The position numbers and the translations under genes were made by a program. From assembly GCA_044224715.1 (NCBI GenBank), contig JBGAJV010000017.1:14415-78414 (forward strand): a stretch of 64,000 nt of DNA, read 5' to 3'. Positions within the stretch are counted from its first letter, which is position 1; each line of letters opens with the position of its first letter. The notes under the pieces were generated by a model. The model was not told the DNA's origin. It ran no database searches and saw nothing but the letters and a program-made list of their open reading frames with translations. This stretch comes from Anaerolineales bacterium. Its GTDB lineage: Bacteria; Chloroflexota; Anaerolineae; Anaerolineales; UBA6663. Below, in pieces: positions 913 through 58,610 of the stretch.

Positions 913-1656
913 TCACACGGGCGGCCAGGGGTAACTGTAATTCGATCGGGGATGCGGAAAGATGCCGGCGGCCAGCAACCGCTCGATCCGACGCCGGAGC
1001 GCCGCGACCTCGAGCGGGTCGAGCAGACTGTCGAGCGCGCCGCGCAAGTCCTCGTCGTCCTCGAGGCGAGTCTTCAGGGCGGCAAGATCGGCGCACACGT
1101 CGTCGGGCAGGGGCTCGCCGGCGAAGTCCCAAATCACGGTGCGCAGTTTGTTCTGGGCATGGAAGGTCACGCCATGATCGATCAACCAGAAGCGTTTGTC
1201 GTGCCCTTTGAGGACGTGCCCGGCTTTGCGATCGGCGTTGTTGATGACGACGTCGAAGGCGGCGACCCGCATGAACTGCGACCGCTCGTGATCAGTGACG
1301 TTGAAGTAATGCCACTCGGGCTCGGCATCAATGTAGAACTGCAGCGAGCCCGGGCCGTGCGGCCCGGAGGGTCGGTACACGGTCGGGGGCACAAGGTCCC
1401 AATCCAATGCCTGGCTCACCAGAAACGTCGCGACTTCTCGATACGCCAGGGTGCTCTCGGGAAAGTCCCAGAGCGGGCGTTCGCCCTTGATCGGCTTGTA
1501 GACCGCCGGCAGGGTGACGCCCTTGTGCTTGACCGTGCAAAGGAAAGTGTAGTTCGAGCCGTCGGGCAGCAGGCCCTGCAGCTTCAAGGTGCCGTCGCGC
1601 AGGATCTCCAGCACGCGGACAAGACTGATCGATTGAGGATCGGAGTCGGCGCTCAC
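913..1656 (-). CDS. SCO1664-family protein (PI3/PI4-kinase-like), third member of the conserved SCO1664/DUF3090/phosphatase gene trio
   Basis: 247-aa ORF with kinase-like motifs NNADRKAGHVL and LIDHGVTF. The overlapping ORFs are Arg-rich shadow frames. Confidence 0.85.
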   Translation of the reverse strand: MSADSDPQSISLVRVLEILRDGTLKLQGLLPDGSNYTFLCTVKHKGVTLPAVYKPIKGERPLWDFPESTLAYREVATFLVSQALDWDLVPPTVYRPSGPHGPGSLQFYIDAEPEWHYFNVTDHERSQFMRVAAFDVVINNADRKAGHVLKGHDKRFWLIDHGVTFHAQNKLRTVIWDFAGEPLPDDVCADLAALKTRLEDDEDLRGALDSLLDPLEVAALRRRIERLLAAGIFPHPRSNYSYPWPPV

Positions 1657-1683
1657 GTTTTGACTATACCGCGCTTTGGAGCG

Positions 1684-2313
1684 TCAGATCAGGCTTTTCT
1701 CCAGCGCGTAGCGGACCATCTCGGCGTTCGAGGTCAGGCCGAGTTTCTCGAGGATACGCGCGCGATACGTGCTGACGGTCTTGACGCTGATCATCAGATC
1801 GGCCGCGATCGCGCTAGCGGTCTTGCCCTGCGCCAGGAGGACGAGCACCTGGAACTCGCGGTTCGACAGGGTCTCGTGCGGCGATTGCGCGTCGTCGCTG
1901 GTCAGGTTGAACGCCAGCATCTCGGCCAGCGTGTCGCTGACGTAGCGCCCGCCGCTCGCGATCTTGCGCAGCGCGGGCGCGAGTGACTCGGCCGCATGCT
2001 CCTTGTTCATGTATCCGGCGGCGCCAGCCTTGAGCGCGCGCACCGCGTACTGATCCTCCGCGTGCATGCTCATCACCAGGATAGACAGACTCGGATAGAG
2101 CGCCCGAAGCTCCTCGATCAACTCGATGCCGTTCCGACCGGGCATCGACAGGTCGAGCACGACGATGTCGCAACTGCCCTGGCGCAGCCAGGCCAACAGC
2201 GCCGCCCCGTCGGCGACGTCGCCGACCACGCGCAGGTCGGGCGTCTCTTCGATCACCTGACGGAAACCGCGCCGAACGATCGAGTGATCGTCGGCGATGA
2301 CGACGTTGATCAT
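1684..2313 (-). CDS. NarL/LuxR-family response regulator (REC + LuxR HTH)
   Basis: Start trimmed to MINVVIADDHSIVRR (complement of 2311-2313). Phospho-acceptor context VVLDLSMPG; C-terminal LSNREFQVLVLLAQGKTASAIAADLMISVKTVSTYRARILEKLG. Its ATG overlaps the upstream kinase stop (ATGA). Confidence 0.92.
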   Translation of the reverse strand: MINVVIADDHSIVRRGFRQVIEETPDLRVVGDVADGAALLAWLRQGSCDIVVLDLSMPGRNGIELIEELRALYPSLSILVMSMHAEDQYAVRALKAGAAGYMNKEHAAESLAPALRKIASGGRYVSDTLAEMLAFNLTSDDAQSPHETLSNREFQVLVLLAQGKTASAIAADLMISVKTVSTYRARILEKLGLTSNAEMVRYALEKSLI

Positions 2314-19942: not shown

Positions 19943-19967
19943 GACCTGTCAGGTGGTCTCGGTTGGA
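19943..19967 (+). promoter_or_regulatory. Partial third copy of the GACCTGNCAGGTC / GGTTAGA element
   Basis: GACCTGTCAGGTggtctcGGTTgGA compared with GACCTGTCAGGTCgaaGGTTAGA at 21605-21627. Confidence 0.5.
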
Positions 19968-20033
19968 TTAACGTAAGGACGTCGGTCGATTCGGATATAG
20001 TGAGTCCGATTTGTGGCGAACGCGAGGTGCGAC

Positions 20034-21452
20034 TCAATCGCCGGGTGGCAGACCGATCTGGCGGGCGAGGTGCGCGACCCCTTTGACGATGAGCGCCTCT
20101 GGCAGATGCCCAAAGCCAAGCAGAATCCCGGCGCGAGGTCGTTTGCGATCGATGAAGCACTGGCTGGCCGGGTAGAGCCCGACGCCGACCGCCGACGCTT
20201 GAGCCAGCAACTCGGCCTCGGACAGGCCAAGATCGAACTCGGCGAGCACGTGCATGCCGGCCGCGACGCCGGCGATCCGCACGCGATCGCCGAAGTGATG
20301 CACCAGCGCGGCGAGCAGGGCTTCCCGCCGGCGCTTGTACGTTGCGCGCATCTTGCGGATGTGGCGCTCGAAGACGCCGGTCTCGAGCCAGTCGGCCAGC
20401 GCCAGTTGCTCTAGCACCGGCGTGCAGCGATCCGAGAACCACTTGAGTTCGAGCACGCGCTCCACCAGACGTTCCGGCACGATGCCGTATCCGAGCCGCA
20501 GCCCGGGGAACAGCGTTTTGGAGAACGAGCCCAGATACGCGACGTGCTCGGAGTTGTCGAGCGCCGCCAGGGCCACGGGCGGCGCCTGATCGAAGCGGAA
20601 CTCGCTGTCGTAGTCGTCCTCGAGGATCATGGCGTCGTGGCGCTCGGCCCAACGCAACAGCTCCAACCGGCGCTCGAGCCGCAACGCTGCGCCGGTCGGG
20701 TACTGGTGCGACGGGATGACGTGCACGATCTGCGGCGCGGCGCGACCTGATGGGAGCCTGTCGACACGCATCCCGTGTGCGTCGACGGGGATCGGATGGA
20801 GCCGCAGGCCGTGAAGCCGCGCCAGTCTGCGCACCGGCTCTGGGCCCGGGTCCTCGAGCGCCATCCCGCGCACCGGCGCGAGCGCCCGCAGCATCAGGTC
20901 CATCGCCTGGGCCGTGCCGAGCGTCACCACGACGCGCGCCGGCTCGACGCGCAGGCCGCGGGTGCGGGCGACGTACTCGGCGATCAGGCGGCGCAACTGG
21001 GGCAGGCCTTCCACCGGGCCATAGCCGAGTTGGTCGGGTCGGGCGGTCAACGCGGCGCGCGACAACGCGGCGCGCCACAACCGGCGCGGGAAGAGGTCGA
21101 GCGCGGGCAACCCGGGGCGAAAGTCGAACCGCGGCGGGCGGGCGGGCAGCACGTCGGTGCGCCGCGGCGGATCGTCGATCCGCACGGTGGTCTGCCCCGC
21201 GACGCTCAGCCCGGCGAGCACGTATGTGCCGCTGCCGGGCCGTCCCTCGGCATACCCCTCGGCGATCAACCAGTCATAGGCTTCGACAACCACAAGGCGA
21301 GAGACGCCCAACCGGGTCGCGAGGTCGCGCGTGGCAGGCAGACGCGTGCCGGGCTGCAGGCGCTGGGCCATGATCGCGTCACGGACCGCGTGGGCGATCT
21401 GACTGGCCAGTGGAACCCGGCGGCTCCGGTCGAGCGTGACGTGGATCTCCAT
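20034..21452 (-). CDS. MocR/PdxR-type transcriptional regulator (GntR wHTH fused to a PLP aminotransferase-fold domain)
   Basis: 472 aa with N-terminal HTH LPATRDLATRLGVSRLVVVEAYDWLIAEGY and the aminotransferase-fold PLP-lysine motif LGSFSKTLFPGLRLGY. Confidence 0.9.
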   Translation of the reverse strand: MEIHVTLDRSRRVPLASQIAHAVRDAIMAQRLQPGTRLPATRDLATRLGVSRLVVVEAYDWLIAEGYAEGRPGSGTYVLAGLSVAGQTTVRIDDPPRRTDVLPARPPRFDFRPGLPALDLFPRRLWRAALSRAALTARPDQLGYGPVEGLPQLRRLIAEYVARTRGLRVEPARVVVTLGTAQAMDLMLRALAPVRGMALEDPGPEPVRRLARLHGLRLHPIPVDAHGMRVDRLPSGRAAPQIVHVIPSHQYPTGAALRLERRLELLRWAERHDAMILEDDYDSEFRFDQAPPVALAALDNSEHVAYLGSFSKTLFPGLRLGYGIVPERLVERVLELKWFSDRCTPVLEQLALADWLETGVFERHIRKMRATYKRRREALLAALVHHFGDRVRIAGVAAGMHVLAEFDLGLSEAELLAQASAVGVGLYPASQCFIDRKRPRAGILLGFGHLPEALIVKGVAHLARQIGLPPGD

Positions 21453-21533
21453 AAGTGGTCTATTTTAGCGAAACGATTGTGGAGCTTGAGTGTACCACTT
21501 GGATCGCGTAGGCTGAGTGTGAACGACTGGGTC

Positions 21534-21627
21534 GGTTAGAAAAAACGGTCCCAATCCGTTCCGCCGGATTCTGGAAGGCCTTTGTTTTCCGAGAATCACG
21601 GGTGGACCTGTCAGGTCGAAGGTTAGA
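21534..21627 (+). promoter_or_regulatory. Conserved 94-nt element, copy A (GGTTAGA...87 nt...GGTTAGA with palindrome GACCTGTCAGGTC at 21605-21617)
   Basis: Ungapped alignment to 57895-57988 gives 62/94 identities by my count, with identical ends. Function unknown. Confidence 0.7.
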
Positions 21628-21643
21628 CACGCGGAGGCGCCAG

Positions 21644-23026
21644 ATGACATTTCAACCCGTCACGCAGTTCGAGCCGTTTCGGATCAAGAGCATCGAGCCG
21701 CTCGGACAGACGACGCCGGCCGAACGCCGGGCCGCGCTTGCCCGTTCCGGACTCAACGTCTTTCAACTGCGCGCCGACGAGGTGCTGATCGACCTGTTGA
21801 CCGACTCGGGCACGGGCGCCATGAGCGCCGCGCAATGGGGCGCGATGATGGTGGGCGACGAGTCGTACGCCGGCAGCCGCTCATTCTTCAAGCTCGAGGC
21901 CCAGGTCCGCAAGATCACGGGCTATCGTCACGTCCTGCCCACGCATCAGGGGCGGGCGGCCGAACACATCCTCTTCAGTGCCGTGCTGGCGCCGGGCGCG
22001 ATCGTGCCGAGCAACACGCACTTCGACACCACCCGCGCCAACCTGCAACTCACCGGCGTCGAGGCCCGCGATCTGTTGATCGCCCAGGGCCGACAGCCGA
22101 TGTGCGAGCATCCGTTCAAGGGCAACCTCGACGTCGATCGTCTCGAGGCCCTGATCGCCGAGGTCGGCCGCGAGCGGATCCCGCTGGTGATGCTGACGGT
22201 CACCAACAACGGCGGCGGCGGTCAGCCCGTGTCGATGGGCAACCTGCGCGCCGTGAGCGCGGTATGCCGCCGGCACGACATCCCGTTCTTCCTCGACGCC
22301 TGTCGGTTCGCGGAGAACGCGATGTTCATCAAGCTGCGCGAGCCCGGCTACGCGGATAAGACCCCGCTCGAGATCGCCCAGGAGATGTTCGCATTGGCCG
22401 ACGGCTGTACGATGAGCGCCAAGAAGGACGGCATGGTCAACATCGGCGGCTTTCTGGCGCTCAACGACGGCGGCTGGGCCGAGCGCTGCCGCAACCGCAT
22501 GATCCCGATCGAAGGCTTCCCGACCTATGGTGGTCTGGCCGGCTACGACATGGAGGCGTTGGCCGTCGGGCTCGAGGAAGTGCTCGATCCACGGTATCTG
22601 CTGTACCGGTTGGATCAGGCCGCTTACCTTGGCGAGCGCCTCCTGGCGGCGGGTGTGCCGATCGTGCGCCCGACCGGCGGTCATGCGGTCTTCGTCGATG
22701 CCGGCGCGCTGCTCGACCATCTCCCCTGGCATGTCTTTCCGGGCGCGGCGCTGAGCGCGCATCTGTACGAGGTCTCGGGCGTACGCAGTTGCGAAATCGG
22801 CAGCCTGCTCTTCGGGCTCAAGGACGCCGACGGTCACGACGCGCCGGCGCCCAACGAGCTGCTGCGTCTCGCCATCCCGCGGCGTATGTACACGCGCGCC
22901 CATCTCGATTATGTGGCCGAGGCCGTGGTTTACTGCGCCGAGCACAGACACGAGATCCGTGGTCTGCGCTTCACGTACGAGGCGCCGGTGCTGCGTCACT
23001 TCACGGCGCGATTTGCGTGGGCGTGA
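21644..23026 (+). CDS. Beta-eliminating lyase: tyrosine phenol-lyase / tryptophanase family
   Basis: Start set at MTFQPVTQFEPFRIKSIEPL (family-typical N-terminus). PLP-lysine motif MSAKKDGMVNIGGF. 460 aa. Confidence 0.92.
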   Translation: MTFQPVTQFEPFRIKSIEPLGQTTPAERRAALARSGLNVFQLRADEVLIDLLTDSGTGAMSAAQWGAMMVGDESYAGSRSFFKLEAQVRKITGYRHVLPTHQGRAAEHILFSAVLAPGAIVPSNTHFDTTRANLQLTGVEARDLLIAQGRQPMCEHPFKGNLDVDRLEALIAEVGRERIPLVMLTVTNNGGGGQPVSMGNLRAVSAVCRRHDIPFFLDACRFAENAMFIKLREPGYADKTPLEIAQEMFALADGCTMSAKKDGMVNIGGFLALNDGGWAERCRNRMIPIEGFPTYGGLAGYDMEALAVGLEEVLDPRYLLYRLDQAAYLGERLLAAGVPIVRPTGGHAVFVDAGALLDHLPWHVFPGAALSAHLYEVSGVRSCEIGSLLFGLKDADGHDAPAPNELLRLAIPRRMYTRAHLDYVAEAVVYCAEHRHEIRGLRFTYEAPVLRHFTARFAWA

Positions 23027-50400: not shown

Positions 50401-50474
50401 GGGCAATTAGCTCAGTTGGTCAGAGCGCACGGTTCACATCCGTGAGGTCACAGGTTCGAGCCCTGTATTGCCCA
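50401..50474 (+). tRNA. tRNA-Val (anticodon CAC), CCA not encoded
   Basis: Cloverleaf folded by hand: acceptor GGGCAAT/ATTGCCC, D-arm GCTC-AGTTGGTCA-GAGC, anticodon arm CACGG-TTCACAT-CCGTG, T-arm ACAGG-TTCGAGC-CCTGT, discriminator A. 74 nt. Confidence 0.95.
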
Positions 50475-56847: not shown

Positions 56848-57111
56848 GCAGGCAGAAATCCGCTGGAATTCCGGCCCTTTGGGAGCCGATTGGGCCCCGG
56901 GTAGAACGTCCGTTTGGCGCGGCGCGCAGCCGAAGGCATGGTGGCGAAGTCGAACACGGATCAGGGCGGAGCATTCAGGCGGCCACCGCGACAGTCCACT
57001 GAAAGTTCGTGTGGCGATGTTTTCAGACACTCGAGGGCGATGACGGCATGTACAATGCCTCGCGCGGTGACGACTGCGCGATCACGCCAACGACACGACC
57101 CCAACAACGCC

Positions 57112-57900
57112 ATGTCCTCGATCTCCGACCAGACCTTCCTACATCTGAGTGATCTTCATCTCGCCAACACGCTCGACGGCATCTCGTACGAGGTCTCGGC
57201 CGTGGGGCAACTGCGCCGCGTGCTGGCGGCCGCCCGAGCCGCCGACGCGACGCCGACCTGCGTCATCGTCAGCGGAGATCTGTCGGATCGTGGAGAGCCA
57301 GATAGCTACGCGGTACTGCGCGACGTCATGCCCGAGCTCGAGGCCTTCAACGTCCCGGTGTTGATCGGTCTTGGCAACCACGACCGCCGGGTGCCGTTCC
57401 GCCAGGTTTATCTGGGTGAGACCGAGGCCGATGAACAGGCGCCGTACTATTACAAACGCGTCATCGGCGACCTGCACGTGTTCATGCTCGACAGCAAGGT
57501 GCCGGGCAAGGTCGCGGGCGAGTTGGGGCAGGCGCAACGCGATTGGCTGGCCGACGAGCTCACGCGCACGCCGCCTGGCCAGGCGCTGATCGTGTTGCAT
57601 CATTCGGTGAACCTGTGGGGAATCCGCAACGTCGATGAAGACGAACTGGCCGACGCGCGCGAGCTGGCCGAGATCCTGACGCCGCACGCCGTGCTGGGCG
57701 TGCTCGGCGGCCATCTGCACTTCAGCGTGGTCGCGGCCTATGCGGGCTCGGTGTCGATCACGGCGCCGGGCGTCGTCAACCAGTGGGACCCGACCTGCGC
57801 GACCATGCGCGTGAACCCCTGGCCCGGCTTCAATCTGTGCACGGTGCGCGGCGGGCGGCTGCTCGTCAACCCCGTCGTGCTTGGCCCGGCTCAAGGTTAG
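57112..57900 (+). CDS. Calcineurin-like metallophosphoesterase (CpdA-type)
   Basis: Start trimmed to MSSISDQTFLHLSDLHL (DxH). Also SGDLSDRG, GNHD and VLHHS motifs. 262 aa. Confidence 0.88.
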   Translation: MSSISDQTFLHLSDLHLANTLDGISYEVSAVGQLRRVLAAARAADATPTCVIVSGDLSDRGEPDSYAVLRDVMPELEAFNVPVLIGLGNHDRRVPFRQVYLGETEADEQAPYYYKRVIGDLHVFMLDSKVPGKVAGELGQAQRDWLADELTRTPPGQALIVLHHSVNLWGIRNVDEDELADARELAEILTPHAVLGVLGGHLHFSVVAAYAGSVSITAPGVVNQWDPTCATMRVNPWPGFNLCTVRGGRLLVNPVVLGPAQG

Positions 57901-57988
57901 AAAATCGCCTTCTATTCAATAAAGTCGTTTTTTGAATGACCGGTAATTGCCGAGGATTTTGAATGGACCTGACAGGTCGAAGGTTAGA
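57895..57988 (+). promoter_or_regulatory. Conserved 94-nt element, copy B (GGTTAGA...87 nt...GGTTAGA with palindrome GACCTGACAGGTC at 57966-57978)
   Basis: Same length and conserved ends as 21534-21627, with an AT-rich interior. Function unknown. Confidence 0.7.
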
Positions 57989-58610
57989 ATCCGCCCCGGC
58001 GCCCAACCTCCGGCGGTTGCGCGCCGACGACGCGGAGACGATCGCGGCGGCTTTCGCGGCGCAGGGTTGGGCCAAGCCGGCCGAGCAGTACCGGCGCTAC
58101 GCCGCCGAGCAGACCGCGGGCGCGCGCATCACGCTCGTCGCCGAAGTCGACGGTGTCTTCGCCGGCTACGTCAACGTGTTGTGGGTGTCGCCCTATGCCA
58201 GTTTTCGCGCGGCCGGCATCCCTGAAATCGCCGACTTCAATGTGCTCGAGCGTTTCCAGCGCCGCGGGATCGGCACCGCGCTGATGGATGCCGCCGAGGC
58301 CCTGATCGCCGAGCGCTCACCGGTCGCCGGCATCGGCGTGGGCCTGACGGCCGATTACGGGGCCGCTCAGATCCTGTACATCAAACGCGGCTATGTGCCC
58401 GACGGGCGTGGCCTCGTCTACCGCGACCAGCCCGCGCCGCATGGCACATCCGTCACGGTCGACGACGACCTCGTGCTCTACCTGACCCGCGTCGTAGGGC
58501 CAGGCGCTACAGAGCGCCCCACAACTTCTGCACCGCGGCGAGCGCGGCGTCGGCCGAGCCGGCCGGGAACAACTCGAAGCCCACATACCCGCGATACCCG
58601 CCGCGCTTGA
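57963..58610 (+). CDS. GNAT-family N-acetyltransferase (start uncertain; the 3' tail overlaps the convergent gene)
   Basis: Acetyl-CoA motif FQRRGIGTALMDAA. ATG 57963 lies inside the conserved element; TTG 58017 is an in-frame alternative. The last ~35 codons are Arg/Pro-rich and overlap 58507-58610. Confidence 0.75.
   Translation: MDLTGRRLESAPAPNLRRLRADDAETIAAAFAAQGWAKPAEQYRRYAAEQTAGARITLVAEVDGVFAGYVNVLWVSPYASFRAAGIPEIADFNVLERFQRRGIGTALMDAAEALIAERSPVAGIGVGLTADYGAAQILYIKRGYVPDGRGLVYRDQPAPHGTSVTVDDDLVLYLTRVVGPGATERPTTSAPRRARRRPSRPGTTRSPHTRDTRRA

Follow-up and report, generated by a model that had tools for sequence, protein, structure and literature searches.

Why does the same 25-nucleotide (nt) block lie at the head of two genes in one stretch of an Anaerolineales genome? 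The stretch analysed here, referred to as the window, comprises 64,000 nt of contig JBGAJV010000017.1 (assembly GCA_044224715.1, positions 14,415 to 78,414, forward strand). One copy of the block (copy A) precedes a beta-eliminating lyase gene, and the other (copy B) precedes a GNAT acetyltransferase gene and contributes to its open reading frame (ORF). Copy B is very likely a member of a dispersed Anaerolineales repeat family of the repetitive extragenic palindrome (REP) type, partnered with a probably single-copy Y1/HUH transposase that resembles tyrosine transposases associated with REPs (RAYTs). The repeats were placed in the REP/RAYT class ("REPtron/TIRtron") because the RAYT-like gene is flanked by inverted copies of the element and because its distant homologues are flanked by REP doublets (REPINs) with the same core. 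The two apparent gene-specific signals are, in this reading, copies of one genome-wide repeat.

Two Copies of One Unit in the Window

The 25-nt block TGGACCTGNCAGGTCGAAGGTTAGA was located at 21603-21627 and 57964-57988. Both occurrences matched the pattern with 0 mismatches, the sole difference between them being the central N (T versus A), and the chance expectation for the block in the window was 0.00 (shuffle). Each block was found to be the 3′ end of a longer unit of approximately 100 nt. GGTTAGAA opens this unit exactly 87 nt 5′ of the second GGTTAGA, and this left box starts at 21534 in copy A and at 57895 in copy B. GGTTAGAA had 3 matches in the window versus 0.33 expected, with none beyond the two units.

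Copy B as a whole (AAGGTTAGAA ... GAAGGTTAGAATC) occupies 57893-57991 on the forward strand and matched the family profile with an nhmmer E value of 2.8e-22; its architecture is common to the 68 distinct copies described below. The left box (57895-57902) contains the TAG at 57898-57900, which is the stop codon of the upstream metallophosphoesterase gene. The variable AT-rich left half (57903-57949) includes the T-run TTTTTTGAA at 57928-57936. The central conserved CCGAG(G/A)AT segment (57950-57965) holds a Shine-Dalgarno-like GAGGA at 57952-57956, which is 6 nt before the ATG at 57963-57965. The 13-nt palindrome GACCTGACAGGTC (57966-57978, without strand), with the core ACCTGNCAGGT, is by analogy the presumed hairpin recognised by the RAYT. 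The linker GAA and the right box GGTTAGAATC (57979-57991) complete the unit, and the AATC of this box is 90% conserved in the family.

The observations on which the initial annotation was built were reproduced. Copy B does start inside the metallophosphoesterase stop codon, and its interior is indeed AT-rich: the GC content of 57905-57960 is 37.5% versus 66.5% window-wide, and only 0.04% of 56-nt windows are as low. The only ATG of the GNAT ORF is that at 57963-57965, which overlaps the 25-nt block by two bases, and a GTG at 21602 takes the equivalent position in copy A. In the window, the block is in frame with the ORF that follows it at copy A as well as at copy B, and the reading is MDL(S/T)GRRL(D/E).

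A Dispersed Repeat Family in Anaerolineales

The 22-nt core GACCTGNCAGGTCGAAGGTTAG was scanned for exact matches in species-representative genomes and then in metagenomes. The former yielded 22 loci, all in metagenome-assembled genomes (MAGs) of Anaerolineales and 16 of them in one MAG, and the latter yielded 45 further loci. In total, 70 occurrences of the 22-mer were obtained, corresponding to 68 distinct sequences. Comparison of the flanks indicated that many copies were orthologues of one locus in different genomes, leaving approximately 30-35 independent loci; single-linkage clustering, which merges some non-orthologous copies, gave 33 clusters. Loci are denoted by L numbers. Copy B has orthologues at L023, L049, L067-L073, L081 and L082, and copy A has orthologues at L022 and L052.

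One architecture, with the box spacing of 87 nt, was common to all 70 occurrences. The unit runs from GGTTAGAA through a variable AT-rich half, CCGAGAATC, the palindrome GACCTGNCAGGTC and GAA to GGTTAGAATC, so that the 25-nt block is its right end. The left part reads (A)AGGTTAGAA followed by a variable AT-rich stretch of approximately 45 nt, usually with TTGAATAC and the T-run TTTTTGAA. The right part reads GCCTTG(TTTT/AAAA)CC-CGAGAATC, approximately 7 variable nt, the palindrome GACCTG-N-CAGGTC, GAA and GGTTAGAATC. The linker GAA varies (GAC in L081, CAT in L071). Around the position of the copy B start codon, the family consensus is GAGAAT...GTG, and most copies carry GTG, CTG or TCG rather than ATG. 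A full-text scan of the literature for the family core sequence was empty, and this repeat family of approximately 100 nt in Anaerolineales is previously undescribed.

Conservation was evaluated in 30 orthologous pairs, for which the identity of the flanking coding sequences was 0.76-0.79. The variable left half had an identity of 0.67 in these pairs; scored in the same way, paralogous copies that are not orthologous reached 0.63. The identity of the left box was 0.85 in the orthologous pairs and likewise 85% among paralogues, and that of the AATC after the core was 0.90. The left box and the AATC were outside the search pattern, and therefore their conservation is no ascertainment artefact. 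Judged by these alignments, constraint acts on the boxes and the right half, whereas the left half drifts freely and is essentially unconstrained.

Some imperfect copies were also observed. A degenerate copy at L014:5793-5881(-) reads ...GAAAACAAGAGAATGCATAAAGACCCGTCAGGTCGAAAGC and has lost the right box; only 2-3 decayed copies, this one among them, were found in approximately 0.6 Mb of related sequence. A truncated element without a left box lies at L043:3675-3750. At L015:5050-5115, the element ATG opens a 20-codon ORF (MDLTGRRLEPTLDNHATEAP*), the TGA of which overlaps the ATG of the downstream gene (ATGA), and translational coupling is possible at this junction.

A RAYT-Like Transposase Flanked by Inverted Copies

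At L035, two inverted copies of the element surround an ORF of 217 amino acids (aa) with HUH (NHFHLIV) and tyrosine (YVHINP) motifs. The ORF matched the NCBIfam model NF047646, "REP-associated tyrosine transposase", with an E value of 7.5e-18 over 143 of the 146 profile positions (64.8 bits). Its sole match in the PDB was 4ER8, the E. coli TnpA-REP (E 1.3e-5), to which the HUH and tyrosine regions were aligned, and several of its homologues are labelled "REP element-mobilizing transposase RayT" by JGI.

Orthologues of this gene (L074, L075/76 and L079/80) were retrieved by protein identity alone. Inverted flanking copies were present in every RAYT orthologous locus examined (L035, L074, L075/76 and L079/80), with nhmmer E values of 3e-17 to 3e-25. 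One reverse-complemented copy lies approximately 90 nt upstream of the gene, and the other copy overlaps its 3′ end; in L074, the arms are 114 nt long and 76% complementary. The synteny rhodanese-RAYT-hisG-hisD is conserved in 4 genomes, which points to a single, vertically inherited copy of the RAYT. Moreover, a flanked RAYT (L074) occurs together with an orthologue of copy B (L081) in the assembly GCA_039810145.1.

The association extends to more distant enzymes. RAYT homologues of 47-49% identity (L077, L084) are flanked by the REPIN doublets AGACCTGACAGGTTTT/AAAACCTGTCAGGTCT, which carry the core ACCTGNCAGGT, and a homologue of 43% identity (L085) is flanked by AGACCGCNGCGGT doublets. Related repeats flank distant RAYT homologues, and therefore the enzyme and the palindrome co-vary. 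The sister RAYTs, with REPIN doublets of the same or a co-varying core, provide a natural series for the co-evolution of Y1 enzymes and their hairpins.

Further features were observed near these genes. The homologues of 47-49% identity are hosted, in different genomes, by type I restriction-modification operons of the order hsdR-RAYT-hsdM or hsdM-RAYT-hsdS. REPIN doublets flank these homologues (L077/L078:2501-3097 and L084:1201-1815), and the one in L084 is in addition interrupted by such doublets. At L043:13199-13585 there is a second, distant Y1-transposase-like ORF, with 33% identity to the RAYT. The REP copy that follows the RAYT gene is directly succeeded, at its right end, by a TTGACG-N18-TATAGT promoter (L074:2510-2700; L075, L076, L079 and L080; L035:~1655-1720(-)). 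Next come a leader peptide of the his type, MFARAHHHHH(N/S)DLPADRLG, and, before hisG-hisD, an attenuator with a GC hairpin and T-run. This leader region has the organisation of a proteobacterial-style histidine attenuator, here predicted for Anaerolineales.

Position of the Copies Relative to Genes

Positions relative to genes were scored with a codon-usage gene model for 32 of the independent loci. At 17 of these loci, the element sits in sense orientation within a tandem gene pair; at 9 it is antisense to the genes on either side. Divergent genes surround it at 4 loci and convergent genes at 2. In 28 of the 32 loci an end of the element adjoins the 3′ end of a gene, and copies occur in either orientation. 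In approximately 10 copies the upstream gene terminates at the left-box TAG, and in approximately 8 a converging gene terminates at the TAA inside the right-box CTAACC, read on the other strand. The orientation bias in tandem pairs, 17 sense versus 9 antisense loci, is too weak to support a promoter function.

Comparison with Known REP and IS200/IS605 Systems

REPtrons and TIRtrons are single-copy RAYTs flanked by REPs or by lengthy terminal inverted repeats (TIRs) that also form dispersed families (PMC3733652). The association between RAYTs and repeats is also addressed in PMC5581495, PMC3337134 and the RAREFAN preprint. GTAG REPs have already been reported from the phylum Chloroflexi (PMC3733652).

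The present family resembles the E. coli REP sequences and bacterial interspersed mosaic elements with TnpA-REP in several respects. In both, a short extragenic palindrome is accompanied by a conserved tag at a distance of a few bases, and both form tens of dispersed copies or more that lie mostly just downstream of genes (PMC3733652). As in the E. coli REPtrons, the Y1/HUH transposase gene has inverted flanking copies and is predicted to be single-copy, and the only PDB relative of its product is 4ER8. The RAYT is syntenic and probably vertically inherited as a single copy, and the repeats are kept at orthologous sites over long divergence, which recalls the REPIN-RAYT systems of Pseudomonas and Enterobacteria described by Bertels & Rainey. 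The long non-GTAG inverted repeats around the RAYT-like gene, here approximately 100-114 nt, and their moderately abundant dispersed relatives are also features of the TIRtrons/TIRYTs (Di Nocera et al. 2013, PMC3733652). However, the TIR families described there share GGGGWSAS or are mutually unrelated, and none has the present sequence (PMC3733652).

Several points weigh against a REP/RAYT assignment. First, the design of the unit is atypical. The tag is GTTAG (CTAAC on the other strand) at 3 nt from the stem, whereas a GTAG abuts the stem in E. coli REPs. The palindrome has 13-17 nt with a stem of 5-7 bp, unlike the classical REPs of 20-40 nt. Each conserved unit of approximately 100 nt has one palindrome and carries GGTTAGAA at both ends in direct orientation, unlike E. 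coli REP. The family is thus a singlet, with no inverted REP pair that forms a long hairpin as in REPIN-RAYT systems; true REPIN doublets occur at the sister Anaerolineae RAYTs (L077, L084 and L085), with the same core in L077 and L084. Second, the profile scores of the L035 ORF lie below the curated cut-offs, with 64.8 bits versus an equivalog cut-off of 80 for NF047646 and a weak 19 bits versus 23 for Pfam Y1_Tnp. Third, the 64-kb window contains no RAYT, and the link for this genome is made through homology with its relatives. Fourth, the single-stranded DNA (ssDNA) fold of the palindrome, with its short stem, has an energy of -3 to -6 kcal/mol, which is no better than that of shuffles. Fifth, no empty site or presence/absence polymorphism was found among the fetched loci and all orthologous pairs were filled, a pattern that reflects ascertainment, as all loci were ascertained via the element or the flanking proteins. 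Finally, the core is perfectly kept at orthologous sites with a flank identity of 68-80%, which suggests a constraint that goes further than selfish spread.

The REP/RAYT reading leads to the following proposed mechanism. On the model of E. coli TnpA-REP and of IS200/IS605, this enzyme may recognise the palindrome as an ssDNA hairpin together with the nearby GTTAG tag; it would once have spread the repeat copies and perhaps still maintains them. Copy B was already in place when at least 8 sampled lineages diverged, and the upstream gene ends in the element TAG. In the sub-lineage of the window, the native GNAT start was lost, with translation most likely from the element ATG. The outcome would be an N-terminal extension of approximately 15 residues in GNAT, 10 of which are element-encoded.

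It is unlikely, though worth stating, that the unit is more than a passive REP relic, being either a minimal single-hairpin Y1 substrate or a host-domesticated gene-boundary module. As a minimal substrate, it could use the same GGTTAG as the left (target) and right cleavage sites. IS608 inserts 3′ of a tetranucleotide, and its right-end cleavage site lies approximately 10 nt from a hairpin. The unit resembles IS200/IS605 elements (IS608, ISDra2) in the Y1/HUH enzyme, in a subterminal hairpin approximately 9 nt from the right end, and in the recurrence of one short sequence (TTAG) at its left junction and right end; this resemblance serves as a lead only. Unlike those elements, the dispersed copies lack an internal transposase and a conserved hairpin at the left end, and the transposase gene is syntenic and probably single-copy. 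If the unit were such a substrate, it would link IS200/IS605 transposition to REP/RAYT systems, in a phylum for which work on either is not known. The gene-boundary module is suggested by the stop codons that the unit routinely contributes on either strand and by the start signals that it sometimes provides. The boxes and the 22-nt core are invariant at dozens of orthologous sites with saturated synonymous positions.

In addition to the REP/RAYT system with an unusual singlet, direct-box design that is thereby added for Anaerolineales, copy B is a clean case of a repeat that donates a stop codon and, after loss of a native ATG, probably a start codon to neighbouring genes. Rickettsia palindromic elements are repeats that become part of coding regions. 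REPs also occur inside genes (PMC3733652). Copy B is similar in that host genes gain codons from it, here a stop codon at one gene and probably the start codon and 10 residues at the next. Unlike with the Rickettsia elements, only gene termini are affected, and no internal in-frame insertion was seen.

Regulatory, Mobile-Element and Peptide Alternatives

An improbable alternative is that the element is a host cis-regulatory module, either with the palindrome as an operator and TAGAAT as a -10 box or as an RNA element of the 5′ untranslated or intercistronic region (hairpin plus the Shine-Dalgarno-like GAAGG). The flanking of the RAYT would then be incidental or secondary. Such a module would account for the invariance of the core and boxes at orthologous loci with largely saturated synonymous sites. 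Many sense copies end 4-58 nt ahead of a co-oriented start codon, several have an ATG 4-10 nt past AATC, which brings GAAGG to Shine-Dalgarno distance, and the copy on the GNAT side is kept even where the upstream gene has decayed. However, at approximately one third of the loci the element is antisense to the genes on either side or sits between a convergent pair. A consensus scan of copy A and copy B detected neither a sigma-70-type promoter nor an intrinsic terminator, although the canonical promoter (TTGACG-N18-TATAGT) and a GC-hairpin/T-run terminator both occur in the clade, at the his leader. Manual checks of the spacing of TAGAAT and GAGAAT to possible -35 boxes all failed: there is no -35 box at a workable spacing, and position 2 of GAGAAT is not conserved. 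A regulatory module also leaves the systematic inverted flanking of the RAYT at 4 of 4 orthologous loci unexplained.

The RNA version of this alternative was evaluated by structural comparison. RNAalifold on 24 and on 68 copies, for both strands, gave only the invariant 5-bp hairpin without covariation, and single-sequence folds of the copies were inconsistent. The element was unmatched in Rfam at the gathering threshold for the window and at E<=5 for L003, L006 and L012. A structured cis-regulatory RNA or riboswitch was therefore rejected. An own-versus-permuted duplex test for copy-specific complementarity gave a weak signal of at most -0.6 kcal/mol.

A miniature inverted-repeat transposable element or palindromic element of a conventional insertion sequence (IS), unrelated to the RAYT, is highly improbable. 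It could be of the IS5/IS630 type with TIRs and a TTAG/TA duplication, or a remnant of IS200/IS605. In its favour, GGTTAG stands at both ends of the unit and stop codons fall exactly in the boxes, as expected for a target-site duplication or for insertion 3′ of a tetranucleotide; TTAG also fits the IS5 target YTAR. Nevertheless, terminal inverted repeats are absent from the unit, none of the 70 exact-core occurrences belongs to a full-length IS with such ends, and the RAYT-like gene is the only associated transposase. Furthermore, a variable target-site duplication was rejected because the sequences after the left and right boxes are uncorrelated within copies (z = -0.08), and therefore the boxes belong to the element and not to a duplicated variable target.

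Other origins were considered and rejected. A tRNA-like origin of GAAGGTTAGAATCC was discarded because ARAGORN found only a tRNA-Val at 50401 in the window and the elements had no Rfam tRNA match. The boxes are direct rather than inverse and form no array, which disagrees with an integron attC site (RYYYAAC...GTTRRRY) or a Xer dif-like site. A LexA/SOS box was considered as lexA neighbours copy B, and was discarded as the element is genome-wide; the copy B palindrome has no resemblance to known SOS boxes.

Almost no credence can be given to an N-terminal tag or fused leader peptide MDL(S/T)GRRL(D/E) common to the GNAT and lyase proteins, which the initial annotation had kept as its alternative. 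In its favour, both window copies are in frame, five GNAT orthologues preserve the frame, a 2-codon indel included, and one AGG>CGG change in L081 is synonymous. Against it, the block is out of frame in L022 and L052, the lyase orthologues, which already refutes the tag for the lyase. The block is also invariant at the nucleotide level in dozens of copies that are non-coding or antisense, most copies have another codon in place of ATG, and GNAT homologues outside the sub-clade lack the peptide.

Copy A and the Lyase Gene

The frame at copy A was examined against its orthologues. The lyase gene has its own GGAGG at 21633-21637 and ATG at 21644, and the GTG of the block is out of frame with the lyase ATG in L022 and L052; therefore, the in-frame layout at copy A of the window is due to chance. 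The earlier proposal that the block is a nucleotide-level signal rather than a shared peptide held, given these orthologues and the many non-coding copies among the 70 occurrences. It is further backed by the copies that are antisense to both neighbours or between convergent genes and by those that flank the RAYT-like gene.

Copy A (21532-21629, forward strand) is a member of the same family and lies between the lyase gene and a divergent regulator gene of the MocR/GntR-aminotransferase type (20034-21452, minus strand). Between this gene and copy A, at 21453-21530, a strongly conserved sequence GTGGTCTATTT(T/C)AGCG...TGTGGAGCTTGAGTGTACCAC with inverted GTGGT/ACCAC was observed, which is probably the operator of the regulator or the promoter region of the lyase gene. 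A tentative degenerate solo right block GACCTGTCAGGTGgtctcGGTTGGAT lies at 19943-19968 on the forward strand, where GACCTGTCAGGTG is followed 5 nt later by GGTTGGAT; it was missed by the nhmmer family profile and is located in the spacer between the stop codon of the MocR-type gene and the next gene.

The Start of the GNAT Gene

The GNAT ORF extends from 57963 to 58610 on the forward strand, and its first codons, approximately 10 (MDLTGRRLES), lie within the element. The initial annotation had proposed that translation may instead begin at the in-frame TTG at 58017. A search for GNAT homologues gave 4133 matches, 21 of which were aligned. These homologues start 2-4 residues ahead of (L/I)RRL, where conservation begins, and residues R17 and L19 of the window GNAT are at least 90% conserved in them. 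A start at TTG 58017 would remove both residues, and the corresponding codon is CTG in L023, L081 and L082; the proposal is thus unsupported.

The history of copy B was reconstructed from an alignment of eight orthologues, the window included. In L067, L069 and L071, a native GNAT ATG lies a few bases past GGTTAGA(AT/G)CG and gives M(R/I/N)IRRL. In L049, a TTG takes the position of the native start, and the element ATG is also in frame. In the window, L023, L081 and L082, which are the four closest orthologues, CCC replaces the native start, and all four have the in-frame element ATG. Ahead of this ATG, the window carries the Shine-Dalgarno-like GAGGA. The equivalent motif is GGGGA for L081 and GAGAA/GGGAA for L023/L082, compared with a family consensus of GAGAA. 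Throughout the sub-clade, the element and GNAT stay in the same reading frame, with the 2-codon indel of L049 included. The native ATG has been lost, the element ATG is in frame and conserved residues lie upstream of the TTG; therefore, GNAT most likely starts at 57963, and MDLTGRRLES would probably derive from the element. The element-encoded N-terminus appears to be a lineage-specific co-option and not a conserved tag. Mis-annotation is avoided in this way: the element is read neither as a shared leader peptide nor as a riboswitch, and the GNAT start stays at 57963.

The metallophosphoesterase ORF upstream of copy B (56914-57900, forward strand) is the longest ORF from 56914, with a gene model start at 57112, and ends in the element TAG. 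Its orthologue carries the Pfam domain Metallophos, and the gene ends in the element TAG in the intact orthologues. In L067-L070 it has decayed to debris (L067:5445-5830; upstream of GNAT in L068-L070), and the REP copy is intact there.

At its other end, the GNAT ORF of the window also departs from its homologues. It encodes 215 aa versus 166-181 aa in the homologues, which end in ...LTR(R/K)L(R). The excess corresponds to an Arg/Pro-rich run-on of approximately 35 residues at 58503-58610, which overlaps a convergent AP_endonuc_2-like gene and suggests a lost stop codon or a sequencing frameshift.

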